From: Gemmatimonadales bacterium
GTDB taxonomy: Bacteria; Gemmatimonadota; Gemmatimonadetes; Gemmatimonadales; GWC2-71-9
Length of the DNA: 64,000 nucleotides
Assembly: GCA_035577025.1 (NCBI GenBank)
Contig: DATLVU010000058.1
Span: 129,866 to 193,865 of the forward strand
Reading direction: 5' to 3'
Shown: piece by piece, positions 29,846 through 41,983 of the stretch
How positions within the stretch are numbered: the first letter of the stretch is position 1
Layout of the letters: each line of letters starts with the position of its first letter
Notes under the pieces: generated by a model
What the model was told of the DNA's origin: nothing
The model's database searches: none
What the model saw: only the letters and a program-made list of their open reading frames with translations
Translations under genes and position numbers: made by a program

Positions 29846-30856
29846 TCAGGCCACCTGAATCACCTTGATGACGACCTTGCCTCGCGCACGCCCCGTTTCG
29901 AGGTAAGCCAAAGCCTCCTTGGTCGCGTCGAACGAGAAGATCCGATCCACGACCGGCCGGATGACGCCGGATTCAATGAGGGATGTGATCTTGCTCAACT
30001 GCTCGCCGTTCGCTCGCATGAAAACAAACGAGTAGCTCACGCCGTAGTGCTTGGCCTTCTTCCGGATGCCGAAGCTCAAAAGGCGCATGATCTGTTGCAA
30101 GAACCAGTTCGACCCGTTCTCCTTAGCGAACGCTACATCCGGCGGACCAGAGATCGAAATGAGCGTTCCACCGGGCTTCAACACCTCGAGGGACTTTTCG
30201 AGCGTGTCCTTGCCGAGACTGTTCAGGACGACGTCGTAGCCGCTCAGGACCTTCTCGAAATCGTCTTGCTTGTAGTCGACGACGACATCCGCGCCGAGAC
30301 TCTTGACCAGATCGATATTCGCTGTGCTCGTCGTAGTCGCCACCGTTGCGCCGATGTGCTTTGCCAGTTGAATGGCGAATGTGCCTACTCCACCGGAACC
30401 CGCGTGGATCAGGACTTTTTGGCCCTTCTTCAGATTGGCGCGTTCAATCAATACCTGCCAAGCCGTCAGACCCACCAGAGGGATGGACGCTGCCTCTTCC
30501 ATGGTGAGATTCTTGGGCTTCAACGCCACGTCAGCGTCATTCATGGCGATGAATTGCGCGAACGTACCGATCCGGTCCTGACGCGGCCGTGCATAAACCT
30601 CGTCGCCCGGCTTGAACCGTCGCACGTTGGACCCGACACGGACTACGACCCCGGCCCCGTCATTGCCTAGAATCAGCGGCAAGCGGTAGGGCAGAATGAG
30701 TTTGAACTCGCCGTCCCTAATCTTGGAATCCAGCTGGTTTAAACTGGCTGCGTGGACTTGGACCAGTACATCATCGTCTCGGACTTCCGGTTCCGGCATG
30801 TCGGCGAGACGTACTGCGCTCTTGCTCTTGTAACGATCGACGACGAATGCCTTCAT
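29846..30856 (-). CDS. Zn-independent MDR-family NADPH:quinone oxidoreductase-like dehydrogenase
   Basis: MKAFVVDRYK...VLVQVHAASLNQLD...GNDGAGVVV...VLIHAGSGGVGTFAIQLAK. GC is visibly lower than the neighbourhood. Confidence 0.9.
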   Translation of the reverse strand: MKAFVVDRYKSKSAVRLADMPEPEVRDDDVLVQVHAASLNQLDSKIRDGEFKLILPYRLPLILGNDGAGVVVRVGSNVRRFKPGDEVYARPRQDRIGTFAQFIAMNDADVALKPKNLTMEEAASIPLVGLTAWQVLIERANLKKGQKVLIHAGSGGVGTFAIQLAKHIGATVATTTSTANIDLVKSLGADVVVDYKQDDFEKVLSGYDVVLNSLGKDTLEKSLEVLKPGGTLISISGPPDVAFAKENGSNWFLQQIMRLLSFGIRKKAKHYGVSYSFVFMRANGEQLSKITSLIESGVIRPVVDRIFSFDATKEALAYLETGRARGKVVIKVIQVA

Positions 30857-31590: not shown

Positions 31591-31724
31591 AGTGCCTCGT
31601 TCGCGACCGGGGTACTGAAGGTAGGCGTTTCGGCGACGCTCGGGTGAGACCCGATGTCCGGGGTTGGTCCGCGTCCTGCGACCCTTCGATAGTGCAGCGC
31701 ATCCTATCGCACCAGGAGGTGTCT

Positions 31725-32873
31725 GTGTCACAAACCGCCGTCTGGTGCACCGTACTCACGAGCATGCTGTTGGCCGCGGGCCCGGCGATCGCGCAGCAGC
31801 GAGTATCGGCAAGCGCCTTCGCACCCAGGCGCGTCGATCTCCCGGTCCAGGGCGCGACCGTGCCGCTGCGCCTAATCATGCAGGATCGTGCGACTGTGGA
31901 AGTGATGGTGAACGGTCGCGGGCCTTACGTCTTCGCGATCGAGACGGGAGCGCCGATCGTGCTCGTGACTGAGCGACTCGCGACCGGACTCCATCTCCCT
32001 GCGGATAATCCATTGGTGGACTCTCTCCGCATCGGCGACCTCGTCCTGCGCGATCTTCCCGTAGCCAGAGTCCCGGAGTTCCTGCCCGGAGTCGACGGTC
32101 TGCTTGGCCTGACGGCGTACGGCGACCTGCTCCTGACGGTGGACTACCCCGCGCTCAGCGTCCGTTTCGAACGGGGGGCGCTCGCGGAGCCGAACGGTCG
32201 AGACGTGTTGCCGTTGGTCGAGATGGGTCAGCATCTCGGCGTCGATGTGGAAGTCGGCGGTCATCTCCACCATGCCGTTCTCGACACCCAGAGCTCGGCC
32301 GCGATCGACTGCGCGCCAGAAGTGGCCGATTCGTTGCGCTTCGTTTCTGGTCGTGTGCCGACGGGCTCGGCATCCATCGGCGGCCAGCCCCCCGTGCCGG
32401 TGTTTTCGGCACGGCTGGATGGAGACGTGCGGTTGGGTGCCACGACCATTGAGCGGCCTATCGTGGGCATCGTATCGCCGCCGCCGGGGTTTCCGCGTGA
32501 GTTGCTGCTCGGCGCACGCCTCCTTCGGCATTTCGTCATCACGCTGGATCAGCGGAACAAGCGGATCCGCGTGAACACCCCCGACCGCGTGATTCCGCCC
32601 CCGCCGGGCCTTCGCAGCATCGGGCTGGCGCTTGCGCCGGCGCCGCAAGGAGGAGCGGTGGTGGCGGCGGCTCGGACTGATGGCGCTGCGTACGCATCGG
32701 GGCTGCGCGTGGGCGACGAGGTGCTAATGATCGCCGGGCGGCCGGGGTCGGAGTTCCTCCAGCCTTCCGCGCTGCCGACCGTGGTGCAGAGCGCGGACGT
32801 AGTTCGCTTCGAGGTGCGTCGTAACGGCCAGCCGATGGCCTTTGATGTCGTGCCAAGGGTGCTGATTCCTTAG
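31725..32873 (+). CDS. Retropepsin-like (clan AA) aspartic-protease-fold protein with C-terminal PDZ domain
   Basis: AGGAGG lies 5 nt before GTG 31725. A signal peptide is present. There are two retropepsin-like lobes (FAIETGAPIVLV and AVLDTQSSAAI). PDZ-like block GLRVGDEVLMIAGRP. Confidence 0.75.
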   Translation: MSQTAVWCTVLTSMLLAAGPAIAQQRVSASAFAPRRVDLPVQGATVPLRLIMQDRATVEVMVNGRGPYVFAIETGAPIVLVTERLATGLHLPADNPLVDSLRIGDLVLRDLPVARVPEFLPGVDGLLGLTAYGDLLLTVDYPALSVRFERGALAEPNGRDVLPLVEMGQHLGVDVEVGGHLHHAVLDTQSSAAIDCAPEVADSLRFVSGRVPTGSASIGGQPPVPVFSARLDGDVRLGATTIERPIVGIVSPPPGFPRELLLGARLLRHFVITLDQRNKRIRVNTPDRVIPPPPGLRSIGLALAPAPQGGAVVAAARTDGAAYASGLRVGDEVLMIAGRPGSEFLQPSALPTVVQSADVVRFEVRRNGQPMAFDVVPRVLIP

Positions 32874-33387: not shown

Positions 33388-35586
33388 ATGGGGGTGAGGT
33401 CCCCAGAACGCCCTCCCCGGGGCCCCGATTCCCTATATTGCGTGCCCCGATTCCCGGGTCACCGCGTGACGCTACCCAAACCCCTGCCGGACGACTCCTG
33501 GGCCGTCGACGAGCGCTCCCTCAAAGCGTTCGCCGACCAGCTCAAGCGGCCCCCCGCCGCGCGCGACTGGTACGAGCTGCGGCGCGACGCCGAGCGCATC
33601 GCGCTCGTCCCGGGCTTCGACCGCCTCATCACCCTCGACGCCAACGCCATCAAGGAGCTCCCCCACCAGATCGACGTCGCCCAACGGGTGCTGCGCGACA
33701 TGGGTGGCCGCGCCATCCTCGCGGACGAAGTGGGCCTGGGCAAGACGATCGAGGCGAGCATCATCTACAAGGAGCTCGCCATCCGCGGGCTCGCCCGCCG
33801 CGCCCTGATTCTCACCCCCGCCTCGCTCGTGGGCCAATGGCAGAGTGAGCTCGAAGAGAAATTCTTCGAGCGATTCGAGACTCCCGCCGTTCCTCACGAC
33901 TGGCAACGCATCACCAAAGCGATCGTGTCGCACGACCGCGCACGCTCGCCCCGTCACGCCGCCGAGATCCTACGGCAGCGCTGGGACCTGGTGATCGTGG
34001 ACGAGGCGCACAAGGTGAAGAGCCACAAGAGCGCCACCTACCAGTTCATCGAAAAGATCGAGCGCGACTTCATCCTGCTCCTCACCGCCACGCCGCTCCA
34101 AAACGACCTGCGCGAGCTGTACAACCTCGTCACCCTGCTGCGGCCCGGTCAGTTGGGGACCTGGGACGAGTTCAAGAGCGCCCACCTCATCTCCGGCGAC
34201 CAGCGCCAGCCGCGCGATCCCGAAGCGCTCCGCGCGCTCACCCACGAGGTGATGATCCGCACCCGGCGCTCGAGCGTCGTGGACGACCTCGATCTGCCCC
34301 CGCGCCGGCCGCGCCACCCCGAGGTCCGGCTCACCCCCGCCGAGGCGGACCTGTACGAGCGCACCACCGAGTTCTTGCGCCGCCTCTATAAGGAAGGGTT
34401 CGTCGGGACCGGCGACGCGGAGCCCGAGGAGGACGGCGGCTCGCGCAAGCGACGCACCGGCAAGGGCATGGTGCAGCTCGCGCTGATCCACCTGCGCCAG
34501 CGGCTCTGCTCTTCGGCGCGCGCGCTCGGCGAGTCGCTCGAGCACCTCGGCCAAGCCGAGCGCGTCATCCCCGCGTACCGCGCCATCGCACGCCAGCTCG
34601 CCACCCGCGCGCGGAAGATCAAGACGCACGCCAAGCTCAACGTGCTCGCCAAGCTGCTCAAGGAGACACCCGACCGGGCCGTGGTCTTCAGCGATCACCG
34701 CCCCACGGTCGAGCTGATCGCCGAGCGGGTGAAGCGGCTCGGCAGGAAGCCGATCGTCTATTGGGGCGCGCATTCGACCGCCGAGCGCGACGCGCGCATC
34801 CGTGCGTTCCAACAGGACGAGCGGAGCGTCTTGATCGCCACCCGCGCGGGCAGCGAAGGCAGAAACCTGCAGTTCTGCAACGTGCTGGTGAACTACGACC
34901 TGCCGTGGAACCCGATGGTGGTAGAGCAGCGGATCGGGCGGGTGCATCGCATCGGGCAGAAGCGCGCGGTCCATATCGTGAACCTCGCCGCGGCCGGGAC
35001 GATCGAGGCATACATCCTCCAGCTGCTCGACAAGAAGATCAAGCTGTTCGAGCTGGTGGTAGGCGAGCTGGACGTGATCCTCGGCGAGTTCGGCGGCGCG
35101 GAGCAGTTCGAGGGCCGGCTCGCCGAGCAGTGGCTCAAGGCGGAGAGCGAAGCGGACTTCATCCGCCAGGTCGAAGCGATCGGCACGGACATCGAGCAAA
35201 GCAGCACGGCGGGCCGAGAGCAGGAGCAGCTGAACTCACTGATCGCACCGGACGACAACGCCATGCGGCTCGAGCGGCGCTTCGACACGGTCTCGGTTCC
35301 GGGCCGGCTGCGCCTCGGCCTCGGCACGAACCAGCTGGTCAAGGCGCCCGCCTGGGACAGGAAGCGCCAACGGCTCGGTGTGCACGTCACGGAGATCCTC
35401 GAGGCGCTCGAGTCGATCGAGCCGATCGCCGGCGCTACGCCGCTCGCGCCCGCCGGCAGCCACCCGCAATACGGTGAGCTGGTCAAGCTCACCGGCCTGA
35501 CCAGCGCCGGCCGTGCCATCTCACTCGTGGCGCAGGTGACTCGCCTGCCCATGACGCTCGTCGATATCGCGGTGGACGCGGTATGA
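33388..35586 (+). CDS. SNF2-family (RapA/HepA-like) DEAH-box ATPase
   Basis: GAGGAGG lies upstream (ATG 33388 or GTG 33394). Motifs are LPHQ, DEVGLGKTIEA (I), VIVDEAHKVK (II), LLLTATPLQNDLRELYNL (III), helicase-C block GSEGRNLQ...NYDLPWNP...EQRIGRVHRIGQ. A ~170-aa C-terminal extension is unassigned. Confidence 0.9.
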   Translation: MGVRSPERPPRGPDSLYCVPRFPGHRVTLPKPLPDDSWAVDERSLKAFADQLKRPPAARDWYELRRDAERIALVPGFDRLITLDANAIKELPHQIDVAQRVLRDMGGRAILADEVGLGKTIEASIIYKELAIRGLARRALILTPASLVGQWQSELEEKFFERFETPAVPHDWQRITKAIVSHDRARSPRHAAEILRQRWDLVIVDEAHKVKSHKSATYQFIEKIERDFILLLTATPLQNDLRELYNLVTLLRPGQLGTWDEFKSAHLISGDQRQPRDPEALRALTHEVMIRTRRSSVVDDLDLPPRRPRHPEVRLTPAEADLYERTTEFLRRLYKEGFVGTGDAEPEEDGGSRKRRTGKGMVQLALIHLRQRLCSSARALGESLEHLGQAERVIPAYRAIARQLATRARKIKTHAKLNVLAKLLKETPDRAVVFSDHRPTVELIAERVKRLGRKPIVYWGAHSTAERDARIRAFQQDERSVLIATRAGSEGRNLQFCNVLVNYDLPWNPMVVEQRIGRVHRIGQKRAVHIVNLAAAGTIEAYILQLLDKKIKLFELVVGELDVILGEFGGAEQFEGRLAEQWLKAESEADFIRQVEAIGTDIEQSSTAGREQEQLNSLIAPDDNAMRLERRFDTVSVPGRLRLGLGTNQLVKAPAWDRKRQRLGVHVTEILEALESIEPIAGATPLAPAGSHPQYGELVKLTGLTSAGRAISLVAQVTRLPMTLVDIAVDAV

Positions 35587-37745
35587 AGCGCAAGCCGAGG
35601 CGTAAGCCGCGCGCCAAGCACGCCGCATCGCGGCAAGGCGAGCCGCACGCCGACGCCCATATCGGCCCGCTCGTCGAGCGCTACTGCCGCCTCGCGCGGG
35701 TGAAGCGGGCAGTCTCGGGCGACCTCCATGAGTTGAGCCTGCCTCCGTCCGAACGACGCTTCTTCCGGGATCGCGACCGCTTGCGTGTAGCGTTCTCGCT
35801 CGACGCGCTCGAGCGCCATCCCGAGGCCGAGATCGCGTTGCTCGGCAGCCCCTTCCTCTCCCAGCTGCTCGAGGCGATCCGCGCGCGCGCCACCCGCCTC
35901 TCACTCGGTCTGATCGCGCCCACGTCGCTGCCGGCAAAGAATCGGACGCAGGTCGCGTTGAGCATACCCGTTCGGGACGGGAAGGCCTTGCCCGGGAAGG
36001 CGCGCTCGGCCGTCCACCCGGTGGGGCGACTCATCGCCCGGGTGGTGCTGCGGGCGGGAGCGACCCTCGAGGAGGCGATGGTGGAAAGCGACGTGTGCGA
36101 CCTCTCGAGCGGCGCGCCAGTCGCGCGCGATGTCGCCGAGCTGTTTCACGAGCTCGAAGCCCGCCGGATCGAGCCCGCTGACCCGTCCATTGTTGCGAAG
36201 ACCAAGGTTGTCGCGGCGCGCCGGCCCGAGGACCTCTTGAAGCTGCTCGTCGGCAACCTGCGGGAGAAGTCCGCCGAGCGGGTCGCGGCGCGCCGCGGCG
36301 CGGCGGAGCAGCAGCTCGCGGTCGCGCTCGCCCGCCTCGACCGCTACTTCGCGACGATCCTCGCGGACCAGACCGATGCGGCAGGGGAAGCCGCCGTGAG
36401 GGCGCTCGCGGAACGGCGCCGCACCGAGGAGGTGCGCCGCAACCAGGTGCGCGCAATGGTGCATCCGCTCCAGCTCGTCGAGGCCACCGTCTCGATACAG
36501 CGCGCCGAATGGGAGGTCGAGAGTGGCGGGCATCGCGCGACCTTCAGCGCGCAGCGCTCGGCCGCCGGCGCGGGCGACTGGATCTTCGCGTGTCCCCAGT
36601 GCGGCACCGCGCCCGAGACGCTCGTCGTCTGCAAGCACGACCACTGCGCCTGTACAGCGTGCTCGCACCGCTGCTCGGTATGCGCCGCCGACTTCTGCGT
36701 CGAGCACGGCATTGCCCAGTGCCGCGTGGACGGCGAACCCGCGTGTGCGGAGCACGTGCGGTCGTGCCCCTCGTGCCAACTCCAGTACTGCACGGCGCAC
36801 GAGGGGATCTGTAGCGAAGGTGATCACCCGACGTGCTCGCTGTGCGTCCAGCCGTGCGCGAGCTGCGGCCGCATCGTCTGCAACCGGCACGCCGAACAGA
36901 CCAGTGCCGAAGCGCCGAAAGGCAGCCGCCGGCTCTGCCCGGCGTGCGTGCGGCAGTGCGAGGGCGGGAAGAATGAACCGGTGGGCGTGGATGAAGTGAC
37001 CCAGTGCTCGAGCTGCGGCAAGTCGGTCTGTACCGCCCATCAGGCCGTGTGCGCGGTGGATGGGGAGGCCCATTGCTCGCGTCATCTGCGACGAGCCGAG
37101 GCGTCGCGGCGGTTGGTGTGCGGCCAACACGCGAGCGCTTGTGCCTACGAAGCGGCGATCTTGTTCGCGTCGGATGAGGTCGCGCCGTGCACGTCGTGCG
37201 GCAAGCACGTCTGCGCCAACCACTCCGCGGAATGCGTCACGGATGGGCAGCGACATTGCACCGTCCACCTTGCACAGCTGGCCGACGCCGACGGCGCCTA
37301 TGCCTGCGAGGAGCACCGCAAGCTCTGCCACGTCGATGATCAGGCGTTCACGCCCACCGGCGTGAGCGCGTGCCCAGTCTGCGGCCAGGACGCGTGCACC
37401 GCACATCGAGCGGCGTGTGGGTATTGCGGACGCATCGTGTGTACGGCGGATCTCGGGAAGGTGGAGGCGGGCCGCCCCCGCCCCCGCCGCTGCTCCACCT
37501 GCGCGCGGCTCGCGGTGGACGGCGATGCGCCCGCGGAGGTGATCTCGGCTGCGTTCAAGGCGGCGGGCGAGCAGCGAAAGGGATCTCGCCCGCCCCGATC
37601 GCGCATCGCCCGGGACCACAGCCATTCGGTAGTGGAGCTCGACCTCGGGCTGAGCAGAAAGACGGTCGTCGTGCTGCGGCACGAAGACCTGGTTGCAGAA
37701 AGCGTCCTCAGGCACTCGCTGCTGGGATCGAAGCGGCGGAGCTAA
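35583..37745 (+). CDS. Uncharacterised 720-aa protein: basic N-terminus, unassigned ~330-aa region, then ~300-aa Cys/His-rich multi-zinc-ribbon-like repeat region
   Basis: Its ATG overlaps the SNF2 TGA (GTATGA). GC3 is high. About 45 Cys fall between residues 337 and 640, with 6-7 copies of C-x2-C-x4-C-x2-H. The 604-aa antisense ORF is Arg/Ala/Gly-rich shadow. Confidence 0.8.
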   Translation: MKRKPRRKPRAKHAASRQGEPHADAHIGPLVERYCRLARVKRAVSGDLHELSLPPSERRFFRDRDRLRVAFSLDALERHPEAEIALLGSPFLSQLLEAIRARATRLSLGLIAPTSLPAKNRTQVALSIPVRDGKALPGKARSAVHPVGRLIARVVLRAGATLEEAMVESDVCDLSSGAPVARDVAELFHELEARRIEPADPSIVAKTKVVAARRPEDLLKLLVGNLREKSAERVAARRGAAEQQLAVALARLDRYFATILADQTDAAGEAAVRALAERRRTEEVRRNQVRAMVHPLQLVEATVSIQRAEWEVESGGHRATFSAQRSAAGAGDWIFACPQCGTAPETLVVCKHDHCACTACSHRCSVCAADFCVEHGIAQCRVDGEPACAEHVRSCPSCQLQYCTAHEGICSEGDHPTCSLCVQPCASCGRIVCNRHAEQTSAEAPKGSRRLCPACVRQCEGGKNEPVGVDEVTQCSSCGKSVCTAHQAVCAVDGEAHCSRHLRRAEASRRLVCGQHASACAYEAAILFASDEVAPCTSCGKHVCANHSAECVTDGQRHCTVHLAQLADADGAYACEEHRKLCHVDDQAFTPTGVSACPVCGQDACTAHRAACGYCGRIVCTADLGKVEAGRPRPRRCSTCARLAVDGDAPAEVISAAFKAAGEQRKGSRPPRSRIARDHSHSVVELDLGLSRKTVVVLRHEDLVAESVLRHSLLGSKRRS

Positions 37746-38810: not shown

Positions 38811-38861
38811 CACCAATCGTCTAGATTGCGCTGGCTCAGCTCACCATTCACGGAGGCCGTA

Positions 38862-40223
38862 ATGGCGCTCTCGTGTCGCTCTTATCGCCCCCTCTCGCTC
38901 GCGGCAGCCGTGCTCACGCTGGCAGGGTGCGGCGTCACGGCGCCCTCTCAACCGTTTCATCCCCCGGAGCCCGGCCCATCAGCGGCAGAGGCGCCCAGCG
39001 CCTTCGACAACAAGAGCAACGGCCTGGTCGATGACTCGACCCATGCAGCCGACAAGGAAACCTTCGACGAAGTCGAAGAGATCGGCGACGGGTTGGGTCC
39101 GCTGTACAACGCCCAATCCTGCCGCGACTGCCACCAGAACCCTACCTCCGGCGGCCCGAGCCAGATCTCGGAATTGCGCGTGGGCCACCTCGGTCCCGAT
39201 GGGGCGTTTCGGAATGCGGACATTCCGATTGCCCGCGGCCAGGTCGTGATCTCGGGACGCACGCTCGTCAACGACCGCGCCATCTGCCCCAATGCCGCGT
39301 TCCCCGATTCGGAGATTCAAGAGCGGGTGCCGGACACGGAGACGAACCGCACGACGCGACTCTCCCTCAATCTGCTGGGCGACGGCCTAGTGGAAGCGAT
39401 CGCCGACGAAACCCTGATCGGTCTCGCGCGTGAGCAACGTCGGGCCACGAGCGGCCGGATCCACGGACAGGCGCTGCGGGTCCCGATTGTGGAGGCTCCC
39501 GGCCACGCGGGCGTCGGGCGGTTCGGCTGGAAGGATCAGCACGCCAGCCTGCTGTCGTTCGCCGGCGACGCCTACCTGAACGAGATGGGGATCACGAGCC
39601 GCCTGTTCCCCGAGGAGGTCACGGATCTGTGTAACACGGTGGCCGAGCCAAACGACACGCCGGACTCGACGGGGCTCGAGGACATCGACCGCTTTGCCCG
39701 CTTCATGCGGGCCACCAAGGCGCCCGCCCGCGACCGGGAGCTGGCTGCGACCCCGAAGGCCAAGGAAGGGTCCGCGCTATTCGACAGCATTGGATGCGCG
39801 TTGTGCCACGTCCGCACGCTGACGACGGCCCCGGCCGGCACGGCGATCAACGGCGGCACGTTCACGATTCCGCCGGCACTCGGCGACAAGGTGTTCCATC
39901 CGTTCGGAGACTTCCTGTTGCACGACGTCGGCACGGGAGACGGGATCGCGATCGCGATGACGGAGCACTACGGCCGCAAAGTCTATCAAGCGCTCTGGAA
40001 GGAGTTCGTGGCGGACAGCTTCGCACAGGGTCGCAACAAGGTCCGTACCGCTCCCTTGTGGGGCGTGCGCCTGCGCCCGCGGTTGATGCATGATGCGGCG
40101 TCCCTGACGTTCCGCGACGCGATCTTGCGCCACCGCGGCGAGGCGAATGCGGTCACGCGTCGGTTCAGGCACTTGGCGCCGAGCGAGCAGGACGCGATCA
40201 TCGAGTTCCTGAAGTCCTTGTAA
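38862..40223 (+). CDS. DUF1111-family di-haem cytochrome c (thiol oxidoreductase/peroxidase-like) lipoprotein
   Basis: Lipobox LTLAGC. Two CxxCH motifs are present (CRDCH, CALCH). Blocks GRFGWKDQHASLLSFAGDAYLNEMGIT and PLWGVRLRPRLMHD are present. Confidence 0.85.
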   Translation: MALSCRSYRPLSLAAAVLTLAGCGVTAPSQPFHPPEPGPSAAEAPSAFDNKSNGLVDDSTHAADKETFDEVEEIGDGLGPLYNAQSCRDCHQNPTSGGPSQISELRVGHLGPDGAFRNADIPIARGQVVISGRTLVNDRAICPNAAFPDSEIQERVPDTETNRTTRLSLNLLGDGLVEAIADETLIGLAREQRRATSGRIHGQALRVPIVEAPGHAGVGRFGWKDQHASLLSFAGDAYLNEMGITSRLFPEEVTDLCNTVAEPNDTPDSTGLEDIDRFARFMRATKAPARDRELAATPKAKEGSALFDSIGCALCHVRTLTTAPAGTAINGGTFTIPPALGDKVFHPFGDFLLHDVGTGDGIAIAMTEHYGRKVYQALWKEFVADSFAQGRNKVRTAPLWGVRLRPRLMHDAASLTFRDAILRHRGEANAVTRRFRHLAPSEQDAIIEFLKSL

Positions 40224-40231
40224 GCCCGCGC

Positions 40232-41671
40232 TTAGTGTCGCGCCGAGTCCGGAGGCGGTAACGACACTTGCAACCTCACGAAATCCAGGAGTCGCTGCCG
40301 AGCGGCTTGGTCCAGTAGCTGTCCGTCGAGTACAACCGCATTGATCTTCGTCGTGTTGTGAATGTCCGCTAAGGGATCCGCGTCCAGGAGCACGAGGTCT
40401 GCCAGCTTCCCAGTCGCGATGGTGCCGAGCGAATCGGTAGCATTGAGGAAGATGGCCGGATTCCTGGTAGCAGCCTGCAGTGCCTCCATCGGCGTCAATC
40501 CCGCTTCCACCAGCAATGCCAGCTCGTCATGGAGACTGAAGCCGGGAAAGCAATACGGGTTCAGTACGTCGGTCCCGGCGAGTATTGGGACGCCGGCCCG
40601 GTGGAGCAGCCCTACCAGCTCGACTTGCTTCGCATAGATCCGCTTGCTCCGCGTAAAGTCCGCTGCCGTCATGGTCTTGAGCCGGAAGTCATTGTGAGGA
40701 TTCCAACCATCTCGCATTTCACGCGACATGTACTGAAGCCGGGAATCCGAGGTAAAGACGCTGTCATCTAAGGACGCGAACGCGTGGAGCACAGTCAGCG
40801 TCGGCACCTGCCAGGTACTGTCACGCACGAACTGGGCGGCAAGAGCCCGGCACTTGTCGGAACTGTATGAATCGAGCAGCTCTTGCTGCTGTCGGCGCCC
40901 CAGGGCCCGCAACGAGTCACGGGGCTTCTCAAACGCCGCGACGAGGGCCGCTCGGAGAGCATCCTCATGTGTCGAGCAGCTGAGCAGGATGTCGGTCAAA
41001 TGCTCGATGCTCCGCTGACCGGCCTTGGACGCCGCGAACGCTCCAGCGGCAACAGGCACATGCCCGGCGACGGGCATGTGGAGCCCCTTCGCTTCCGCCA
41101 TGATGGCCGTGTAGACTTCGCGAGGCAGCAGGTTGTACACCTTGATGAAGTCAGCACCCGCAGAGTGTAGAGAGTCGACGACGCGCCGGGCTTGTTGCGC
41201 GTTCGAAAGTCCGATGCTGCCCTCCCAGATCGGCGGCAAACCGTCGAGGATTTGTCCGGACGCGACGAAGCGCGGCTCGGTCAGGTGGTGCTCCGCAAGG
41301 CTAATGCGCGCACCCGCCACGACGTCGAGGCTGCCCCACATCTCTCGCACGCCCGTCACGCCGTTGACGAGAAACAGGGGTCCGAAGGTCGGAAGCGTAC
41401 TCGACCACGCCGCGTGTACGTGCATGTCCCACAAGCCGGGGATGAGAAACTTGCCGGTTCCGTCGAATGCAAGCCCGCCTTTCGGAATCCGGACGGCTCG
41501 ACTCGGTCCGAGCGTCGCGATGCGATTCCCGGTCACGACAACGGTCATGTCCGGCCGCGGCGGCGTGCCCGTCATATCGATGACGGTGACGTGGGTGAAA
41601 GCGAAGGTTTGGGCTCGTCCTACCAGGGGAAGAGCGAGCAACGTCATGAAGCAAAGGGCAGGAATGCGCAT
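40232..41671 (-). CDS. Amidohydrolase-superfamily protein, secreted
   Basis: The start at MRIPALCFMTLLALPLVGRAQT gives a signal peptide. Blocks GLWDMHVHA, AGHVP, IEHLTD, LAGTDV and ADLVLLDADPL are present. Confidence 0.85.
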   Translation of the reverse strand: MRIPALCFMTLLALPLVGRAQTFAFTHVTVIDMTGTPPRPDMTVVVTGNRIATLGPSRAVRIPKGGLAFDGTGKFLIPGLWDMHVHAAWSSTLPTFGPLFLVNGVTGVREMWGSLDVVAGARISLAEHHLTEPRFVASGQILDGLPPIWEGSIGLSNAQQARRVVDSLHSAGADFIKVYNLLPREVYTAIMAEAKGLHMPVAGHVPVAAGAFAASKAGQRSIEHLTDILLSCSTHEDALRAALVAAFEKPRDSLRALGRRQQQELLDSYSSDKCRALAAQFVRDSTWQVPTLTVLHAFASLDDSVFTSDSRLQYMSREMRDGWNPHNDFRLKTMTAADFTRSKRIYAKQVELVGLLHRAGVPILAGTDVLNPYCFPGFSLHDELALLVEAGLTPMEALQAATRNPAIFLNATDSLGTIATGKLADLVLLDADPLADIHNTTKINAVVLDGQLLDQAARQRLLDFVRLQVSLPPPDSARH

Positions 41672-41983
41672 GATGGGATCCAGAGGCGATTCCGTGAGCG
41701 TACGTCTCACCGACATGTTGCGCAACCACGGGGGTGATCGGCTCTTGGGAGATTGGGGCGTCGTTTGACGGTTACAAATCGAGGGGAGCCCCACGTGGCT
41801 CGTGGGCCCCACGCTCAAGCGGAACGACGGGCTGGGCACCTGGGGTAGTAACCCTTAATAGGCTCTAGCAGGACCCGGTAGGTAGTCCGGGGTGGGTATG
41901 TGTTCGCGAGCGGCCGCAGCCCCGGACGGGGGGTGTGCGGCCGCTCTCGTTTACGGTGCTCGAATGCCGGAGAGGAGGGTGTC

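Follow-up and report, generated by a model that had tools for sequence, protein, structure and literature searches.

A stretch of 64,000 nucleotides from a Gemmatimonadales bacterium (GenBank assembly GCA_035577025.1, contig DATLVU010000058.1, positions 129,866 to 193,865 of the forward strand; hereafter the window) encodes, immediately downstream of an SNF2-family ATPase gene, a protein of 720 amino acids (aa) that carries a cysteine-rich array over some 300 residues. On balance, we consider it probable that this array is a long continuous chain of zinc mini-repeats with interleaved metal sites, lying inside a dedicated SNF2 partner protein and having a scaffold or adaptor role. Judged from patterns of ligand loss across the family, each zinc ion most likely takes its ligands from the knuckle of one unit and from the C-x2-H of the unit that follows. 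The family of the Cys-array protein is undescribed, and its novelty would lie in the extension of cross-braced treble-clef zinc binding into an open-ended repeat. The two genes are arranged as follows:

33388..35586, forward strand: SNF2-family ATPase gene, 732 aa, the conserved upstream partner (Pfam SNF2-rel_dom 2.6e-33, Helicase_C 1.2e-21)
35583..35586, forward strand: ATGA overlap of the Cys-array start codon with the SNF2 stop codon, where the sequence reads gcggtATGAagcgc
35583..37745, forward strand: Cys-array protein gene, 720 aa, from the list of open reading frames (ORFs)

The 720-aa protein contains 47 Cys residues, 45 of which lie together with 19 His residues within residues 337–640, a segment that maps exactly to nucleotides 36591–37502. 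The count given in an initial annotation of the window, about 45 Cys in some 300 residues, is therefore accurate. Array Cys content is 14.8%, against a median of 1.1% among the long ORFs of the window. The string C-x2-C-x4-C-x2-[HD] occurs seven times, at residues 364, 395, 425, 475, 536, 597, and 612, whereas 20,000 shufflings of residues 331–650 that kept the Cys-rich composition gave a mean of 0.09 copies and a maximum of 2. All seven strings quoted in the initial annotation, which had counted six or seven units, are present, but the repeat is 15 residues long and the units number about 19.

The length of the repeat is apparent from distant relatives, in which gaps of 4 and 3 residues very regularly alternate from one ligand pair to the next (50 pairs in P0241), so that the repeating unit is 15 residues. 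The consensus of 183 distinct regular units from 35 proteins is C-x2-[C 87%/D 12%]-G-[R/K]-x-V-C-x2-[H 73%/C 20%/D 5%]-x3, or in residue form C-[AP]-[VS]-C-G-[RK]-x-V-C-x-x-H-x3; we refer to the C-x2-[CD] knuckle as pair A and to the C-x2-[HCD] turn as pair B. Parsing in register yields 20 units for the window protein, the first and last being half units and several being degenerate, and relatives reach about 27 units. A second string, C-x2-DG-x3-C-x2-H, had been described as usually following each unit. It is present three times (residues 380, 490, and 551), for only three of the seven units, and when set against the consensus it reads as the 15-aa unit itself with Asp as the second knuckle ligand.

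Three topologies were compared for the ligands that share a metal: A(i)+B(i), which is the unit proposed in the initial annotation; B(i)+A(i+1), which is sequential; and A(i)+B(i+1), which is interleaved. The window protein has three degenerate places, each with pair A missing from one unit and pair B from its successor (unit pairs starting at residues 443/459, 505/520, and 567/582), and what is left at these places is an isolated C-x2-[HC]-x3-C doublet with flanking gaps of 11–19 residues. The pattern was then counted in 33 proteins (the window protein and 50%-identity representatives of at least 450 aa) with 496 interior units. In 49 of these units, pair A was wholly lost. Pair B of the following unit was then degraded, retaining no more than one ligand, in 47 cases, compared with 1 case for pair B of the same unit and 2 for that of the previous unit. 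The background frequency of pair B degradation was 77 of 496 units, and none of 5000 within-protein permutations reached the observed count. The pattern held in all five cases found among the 11 most divergent proteins, and co-loss affects at least five array positions across lineages: units 8/9, 12/13, and 16/17 (the window type), 4/5 (P0236 and P0255), and 6/7 (P0245). The ends of the array behave similarly: in a tally of 34 parsed rows, in which the window protein was entered twice, the array starts with pair A only in 23 and ends with a degraded pair A and at least one pair B ligand in 24. An interleaved parse of the window protein yields 16 sites with at least three ligands (13 with four) and three empty sites. 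The interleaved topology is favored because it alone makes each co-loss event the clean loss of one metal site. The 12-residue string is thus probably not the self-contained finger that it was first taken for, its C-x2-C and the following C-x2-H most likely binding different ions.

Structure prediction with AlphaFold2 (AF2) was run on an alignment of 38 sequences, and a second AF2 model was made of the array alone. The mean predicted local distance difference test (pLDDT) score was 66, with values of 80–94 over residues 380–620. Across this region, the secondary structure has a period of 15 residues: a 3-residue strand, a 6-residue CxxCGx loop, a 3-residue strand ending in the third Cys, and a 3-residue xxH turn. 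A like pattern appears in the C-terminal half of the array-alone model. The earlier description of the region as an array of small, treble-clef-like metal-binding modules is borne out by these models. Foldseek searches of the PDB with the full-length model gave nothing below an E-value of 0.9. With the array model, the best local matches were to FYVE and rabphilin-3A fingers (1joc, 2yw8, 2yqm, 1z2q, 1vfy, 1y02, and 1zbd_B) with probabilities of 0.93–1.00 over 54–61 columns, root-mean-square deviations (rmsd) of 2.6–4.8 Å, 21–29% identity, and E-values of 0.09–0.6, and the next ranks were taken by PZP, tandem PHD, and tandem LIM structures. The top-ranked hits, to megalin, were set aside as repeat artifacts (rmsd about 30 Å, generic Cys-rich repeats). 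A sequence profile search of the PDB returned only a weak match, to the ASC-1 zinc finger 8alz_A (E 0.22), at the last units.

FYVE domains bind two zinc ions in a cross-brace through eight Cys residues arranged in four pairs, and the knuckle and the next Cys pair bind different zinc ions. The FYVE and rabphilin fingers have in common with the array the local core C-x2-C-G-x3-C-x2-C and a similar pair spacing (about 11–12, 4, then 11–16 residues). By analogy, the splitting of the FYVE core over two zinc ions would independently fit the interleaved model. The difference is that FYVE is a closed two-zinc domain, whereas in the array the cross-brace would extend over about 19 units, the loops at each site supplying ligands to the site that follows. 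The FYVE lipid-binding motifs WxxD, R(R/K)HHCR, and RVC are absent from the window protein sequence, and neither FYVE (PF01363) nor PHD Pfam models matched it at E-values up to 10. The spacing had been described as different from that of SWIM, RING, and B-box motifs. No profile of these families matches, but at the level of the single unit the spacing is not unique, being that of the core of FYVE, B-box2, and AN1 fingers.

The register parse, supplemented for the second module by the alignment of 38 homologues, divides the array into the following parts:

36591..36671, forward strand: array head, residues 337–363, C337-x2-C340-x9-C350-x3-H354-x2-C357-x2-C360
36672..36899, forward strand: five regular 15-aa units, residues 364–439, starting at 364, 380, 395, 410, and 425
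36900..37004, forward strand: degenerate stretch, residues 440–474, with C452-x2-C455-x3-C459 remaining
37005..37187, forward strand: 61-aa module 1, residues 475–535, two full units followed by C513-x2-H516-x3-C520 and a conserved DEV motif (pLDDT about 90)
37188..37370, forward strand: 61-aa module 2, residues 536–596, paralogous to module 1
37371..37502, forward strand: last units, residues 597–640, ending in C637-x2-C640 in the pair B position with no knuckle before it

The first knuckle, in the head, has no C-x2-H after it. Head residues C337, C340, C350, H354, and C360 are invariant in the superfamily and C357 is nearly so; head pLDDT is lower, at 58–72. In the degenerate stretch, one unit has lost its knuckle and the following unit its C-x2-H. 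Module 2, which comprises two full units and one bridging site, is missing from about half of the family, and since it is present or absent even among close relatives, array length as read from the sequences varies by whole modules. Shorter family forms of about 570–590 aa exist. The two modules are identical at 18 of 61 residues, and their nucleotide identity (starts at 37005 and 37188) is 45% over 183 nucleotides, rising to 59% within the first 90; the baseline for in-frame comparisons is 31 ± 3.6%. The DNA likeness that had been put down to internal duplication is thus real but weak, and fits an old rather than a recent duplication, preserved through its ligand codons.

The SNF2 gene is a constant companion of the array gene. 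The locus scan used one genome per species and covered 58 loci, all from soil or sediment metagenome-assembled genomes (MAGs) and mostly from Gemmatimonadales. Upstream DNA is available for 49 of these loci, and in every one of them an SNF2 gene directly precedes the Cys-array gene, as it also does in relatives of 20–35% identity from other lineages (L004, L005, L006, L009, and L068), the pairing spanning at least three named phyla: Gemmatimonadota, Chloroflexota, and Planctomycetota. The same 4-nucleotide overlap is found in L001–L003, L005, and L009, and overlap of this kind makes translational coupling of the two genes probable. The closest solved relatives of the SNF2 protein are Sulfolobus SSO1653 (1z63), RapA, and DDM1, with E-values of 6e-31 against DDM1 and 3e-26 against HELLS. 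It scores below the NCBIfam equivalog cut-offs for RapA (202 vs. 576 bits), DrmD_b (237 vs. 950), DpdE (231 vs. 500), and ZorD (91 vs. 1500). The coupling to an ATPase proposed earlier is supported by the position and overlap of this gene. More generally, the initial annotation was right in recognizing an unusual zinc-module array coupled to an ATPase, and probably wrong about unit boundaries, unit number, uniqueness of spacing, and recent duplication.

The Cys-array protein is cytoplasmic, as had been supposed, with no hydrophobic segment, signal peptide, or transmembrane segment. For lack of such export signals, and given the coupling of the gene to that of a cytoplasmic ATPase, a secreted disulfide-rich protein was considered and rejected. 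Outside the array, three further regions can be delimited:

35583..36224, forward strand: N-terminal domain, residues 1–214, with a basic tail at residues 1–30; conserved and poorly modeled (charge, AF2, alignment)
36225..36458, forward strand: two long helices, residues 215–261 and 266–292, a probable coiled-coil hairpin (AF2 secondary structure, pLDDT 80–91)
37533..37718, forward strand: small C-terminal alpha+beta domain, residues 651–712, one helix and four strands (AF2 pLDDT 82–87)

Residues 1–336 have a net charge of +16, to which the Lys/Arg-rich basic tail contributes +7, and the array has a net charge of −5. Being slightly acidic, the array is unlike a polybasic DNA-binding platform, and its proposed role as a multivalent nucleic acid-binding platform is not favored by charge. 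Any contact with nucleic acid would more plausibly be made by the N-terminal part; for the array, a rigid scaffold, spacer, or protein-binding arm is the likelier role. The N-terminal domain is kept across the superfamily (G88, for example, is invariant), its pLDDT is mostly below 50, and the matches listed by a profile search with this domain were all close relatives. The coiled-coil segment is about 150 aa longer in P0258 and P0264. In the C-terminal domain, W673 is nearly invariant across the superfamily, and the motif W-R-x-A-R-D-x-S-H...E-x-D is kept in close relatives only. A catalytic function for this domain was rejected because its polar residues are conserved among close relatives only; the only fold matches in this domain were nonsignificant, to RelE-like (E 0.9) and monellin-like structures.

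In the arrangement that we favor, pair A would sit at the tip of a beta-hairpin and be followed, in each repeat, by four residues, the pair B turn, and three residues. A metal ion would be bound by pair A of unit i and pair B of unit i+1, so each unit would share ligands with both of its neighbors, and the cross-brace of a FYVE, PHD, or RING domain would be continued without interruption. About 16 metal sites would be spread over 304 residues, three sites having been cleanly lost in evolution. The Cys-array protein would be made together with the SNF2 ATPase from the overlapping genes and form a complex with it, the N-terminal part contacting the motor, nucleic acid, or both, and the zinc chain serving as a rigid scaffold or adaptor arm that places the DNA translocase on a protein–DNA substrate. 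The most likely role of the protein is that of a dedicated structural or adaptor subunit of an SNF2 translocase. We infer that the array ligands bind zinc, that the sites interleave, and that the array protein and the SNF2 ATPase form a complex. A bolder proposal, which we regard as possible though doubtful, is that the array represents a new class of metalloprotein repeat. Neighboring units would share ligands in a daisy-chained, open-ended cross-brace that binds one zinc for every 15 residues, 16 to about 27 ions per chain, and the resulting rigid rod would serve a bacterial SNF2 translocase as lever arm, ruler, or adaptor. The array may also be related, from the prokaryotic side, to the cross-braced FYVE, PHD, and RING fingers and to eukaryotic partnerships of SNF2 proteins with zinc fingers such as Rad5/HLTF and CDCA7–HELLS. 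Bacterial SNF2 ATPases other than RapA are poorly understood, and here is one with an obligate, conserved partner of which databases hold no description. If the interleaved model is true, the array would be the longest known continuous cross-braced zinc structure and a natural metal-stapled repeat rod, relevant to zinc-finger evolution and protein design.

Several points weigh against this interpretation. The predicted template modeling score is 0.39–0.41, and at about 0.4 the global shape, whether rod or folded back, is not defined. Every Foldseek E-value is at least 0.007. Many of the co-loss events are inherited rather than independent and reduce to about five distinct positions, and a test of association between ligand types (Asp vs. 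His), which is confounded by shared ancestry, did not separate the topologies. We infer the pairing of ligands from co-loss and analogy, and the literature searches found no evidence for complex formation or for any function.

Database searches identified 414 homologues at E ≤ 1e-3, mostly from Gemmatimonadales MAGs and all called "hypothetical protein" where named; the best 120 are 55–93% identical to the window protein. Each array Cys is invariant in the 38 aligned homologues (55–93% identity). When 1.84 billion representatives were searched exhaustively with a profile, 339 proteins matched, including 101 at E ≤ 1e-30. Full-length relatives of 20–35% identity have the same N-terminal domain, coiled coil, Cys array, and small C-terminal domain, and the named sources of distant relatives are Anaerolineae/Candidatus Amarolinea dominans, Planctomycetes, and Gaiellales (Actinomycetota), the Gaiellales homologue being truncated. 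The scan for known families that had been suggested for this protein returned no curated family: the window protein is without a match in Pfam-A, NCBIfam, PADLOC, or PHROGs, Pfam-A hmmscan finds zero families at E-values up to 1 and up to 10, and PADLOC-DB 2.0 finds zero families for the window protein and the L005 homologue. Among 17 superfamily members, none matched B-box (PF00643), RING (C3HC4), AN1, HIT, MYND, or DnaJ CXXCXGXG models at E ≤ 10. Siva (PF05458) is the only Pfam family matched by more than one member (2 of 17, best E 0.009, below the gathering score), the window protein not being one of them, and YqhG (PF11079) is matched, weakly and in the N-terminal domain, by the distant member P0211 alone of the 17 (E 0.13, 11.7 bits vs. 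a cut-off of 25). Literature searches on yqhG/yqhH, on the motif strings, and on SNF2 proteins with cysteine-rich or treble-clef proteins found no description of the family.

Other zinc-binding proteins resemble the array in part. B-box2, AN1, and ASC-1 (zf-C2HC5) domains contain C-x2-[C/D]-x4-C-x2-[C/H] in a two-zinc cross-brace, with an Asp knuckle ligand in B-box2, but they are single two-zinc domains whose flanking spacings differ from those of the array, and no Pfam match to them was obtained. The Cys-rich C terminus of Siva, the CD27-binding protein, contains two or three consecutive C-x2-C-x4-C-x2-C-x3 units; Siva is eukaryotic and short with an unrelated N terminus, and the window protein has no match to it. 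Pirh2/RCHY1 contains, in its CHY-CTCHY region, consecutive zinc-binding beta-hairpins that form a repeat, but has few sites with another spacing, and its structure 2dkt is among the Foldseek matches at a nonsignificant level (E 0.44, probability 0.13). Compared with the RING-HC consensus C-x2-C-x(9-39)-C-x(1-3)-H-x(2-3)-C-x2-C-x(4-48)-C-x2-C, residues 337–367 at the head fit every gap except the last, which is 3 residues. Bacterial SNF2 genes accompanied by a small partner gene include those paired with SWIM proteins and the Bacillus subtilis yqhG–yqhH pair. The SWIM motif C-x-C-xn-C-x-H is absent from the window protein, there is no Pfam SWIM match, and the sole C-x-C (C355-A-C357) is not kept beyond close relatives. 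In eukaryotes, CDCA7 (zf-4CXXC_R1), a separate Cys-rich zinc protein, is described as an activator or adaptor of the SNF2 remodeler HELLS/DDM1, which it also targets (10.1101/2023.12.19.572350). This is the closest analogy, in organization only; no sequence relation to CDCA7 was found, the zinc domain is a different one, and the setting is eukaryotic chromatin.

In some lineages outside Gemmatimonadales, the SNF2/array pair occurs in larger clusters. These clusters, and a second context in which a relative of the array head is fused to an E2 domain, are located as follows:

L004, 3853-11549; L068, 3464-11571; L005, 1728-7921; L009, 3231-9542: larger SNF2/array clusters of non-Gemmatimonadales relatives
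L007, 552-8216, and L008: P0282, an E2 (UQ_con) fused to four copies of the head module

In all four larger clusters, the SNF2 gene is preceded by an unknown gene and a gene for a classical-clade (Cdc48/PAN/FtsH-like) AAA+ ATPase, and in L004 and L068, a radical-SAM gene, DUF1257, and DUF2997 are downstream of the array gene. The AAA proteins of L004 and L068 are 59% identical and their DUF2997 proteins 51% identical. The L068 cluster adjoins type I restriction-modification (R-M) genes. None of the accessory genes (AAA+, radical-SAM, DUF1257, DUF2997) is found within the 64-kb window. P0282 consists of an N-terminal E2 (UQ_con) followed by four copies of a module made of the head plus about three units, and its operon encodes a YukD-like ubiquitin-like protein (Ubl), a ThiF E1, a JAB peptidase, an FHA protein, and a Prok-RING_1 protein. 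From its gene content, the operon can be read as a prokaryotic ubiquitin-like conjugation system using the same zinc module. In a BLASTP alignment of the window head with the P0282 modules (compositionally adjusted E 8e-4), every ligand column is in register. The presence of the head module in this E2 fusion makes the module mobile, and it may be a protein-interaction device.

The seven recurrences of a string with four contiguous ligands could also be taken for a row of independent one-ion knuckles, each C-x2-C-x4-C-x2-H being retroviral CCHC-like and the whole like beads on a string. Four-ligand sites spanning 12–14 residues do exist, in the C-x2-C-x4-H-x4-C knuckles of retroviruses. We nevertheless consider independent knuckles unlikely here: of the 49 units that have lost their knuckle, 48 retain their own C-x2-H, and 47 are followed by a unit whose C-x2-H is degraded; the first unit has no C-x2-H and the last no knuckle; the AF2 model puts the third Cys at the far end of the strand leaving the knuckle; and the fold matches are cross-braced fingers in which the same C-x2-C-G-x3-C-x2-C core is split between two ions. 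Binding of iron, in rubredoxin-like or Fe–S sites, or control of the SNF2 motor by the array as a redox- or zinc-sensing switch would be in keeping with the very high Cys density, with the capacity of Cys4 and Cys3His sites to bind Fe, and with the radical-SAM genes near the operon in two distant loci. Direct reading of the array finds no ferredoxin-type C-x2-C-x2-C-x3-C-P spacing, however, and with His and Asp frequent as fourth ligands and zinc fingers as the fold matches, iron or redox sensing appears distinctly unlikely.

The P0282 fusion raises the question of an E3-like or RING-like module of ubiquitin-like conjugation, which would make the pair a bacterial counterpart of the SNF2-RING proteins Rad5 or HLTF. 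A homologous head module occurs four times in fusion with an E2 in an operon with Ubl, E1, JAB, and Prok-RING_1 genes, and the head spacing, C-x2-C-x9-C-x3-H-x2-C-x2-C-x3-C-x2-C, nearly fits the RING-HC consensus. Yet Pfam searches extended to E-values of 10 give no match to RING, IBR, or any other model, the last RING gap of the head is 3 residues where the consensus has at least 4, and no E1, E2, or Ubl gene lies beside the SNF2 operons examined. An E3-like role for the SNF2-operon protein is possible but unsupported, and we judge it very unlikely. That the pair forms the core of a mobile antiphage defense system is suggested by the SNF2 protein, which scores best against the DrmD, BrxH, and DpdE models, by distant versions that add an AAA+ ATPase with weak IetA similarity, radical-SAM, DUF1257, and DUF2997, and by the position of L068 beside type I R-M genes. 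All of the SNF2 scores are far under the family cut-offs, as with the 237 bits vs. 950 for DrmD, and no PADLOC model matches the Cys protein. In Gemmatimonadales, the pair is 54–93% identical and has varied, housekeeping-looking neighbors with no accessory genes within 64 kb, and a conserved pair in such surroundings looks vertically inherited. A defense function thus seems improbable to us.

Genes flanking the pair in Gemmatimonadales vary between loci and look housekeeping. The neighbors in the window are as follows:

29846-30856, reverse strand: zinc-type alcohol dehydrogenase
31644-32873, forward strand: aspartyl-protease-like protein
38826-40223, forward strand: di-haem oxidoreductase (DHOR)
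40232-41839, reverse strand: amidohydrolase

None of these four has an obvious link to the SNF2 operon. Base composition is unremarkable, and a promoter and terminator scan gave nothing informative. A 604-aa antisense ORF opposite the Cys-array gene (35901-37715, reverse strand) was judged a high-GC artifact and not a gene, and several other long overlapping ORFs in the window are likewise typical artifacts of DNA with about 70% GC. Copies 61–65% identical to the Gemmatimonadales protein (best tblastn segment) were found on contigs L012, L014, L016, L020, L026, L046, and L063, which fall in bins of Planctomycetia, Burkholderiales, Betaproteobacteria, Rokubacteria, Streptosporangiaceae, and Actinoplanes. 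These Gemmatimonadales-like copies in bins of other phyla are probably due to misbinning rather than horizontal transfer. Two Gemmatimonadales MAGs each contain two diverged Cys-array genes, SMAG_U11526 (L035 and L045) and SMAG_U4496 (L049 and L062), and an SNF2 gene is directly upstream in three of the four, L062 being cut at the contig end, which suggests either paralogous SNF2/array pairs or mixed bins.

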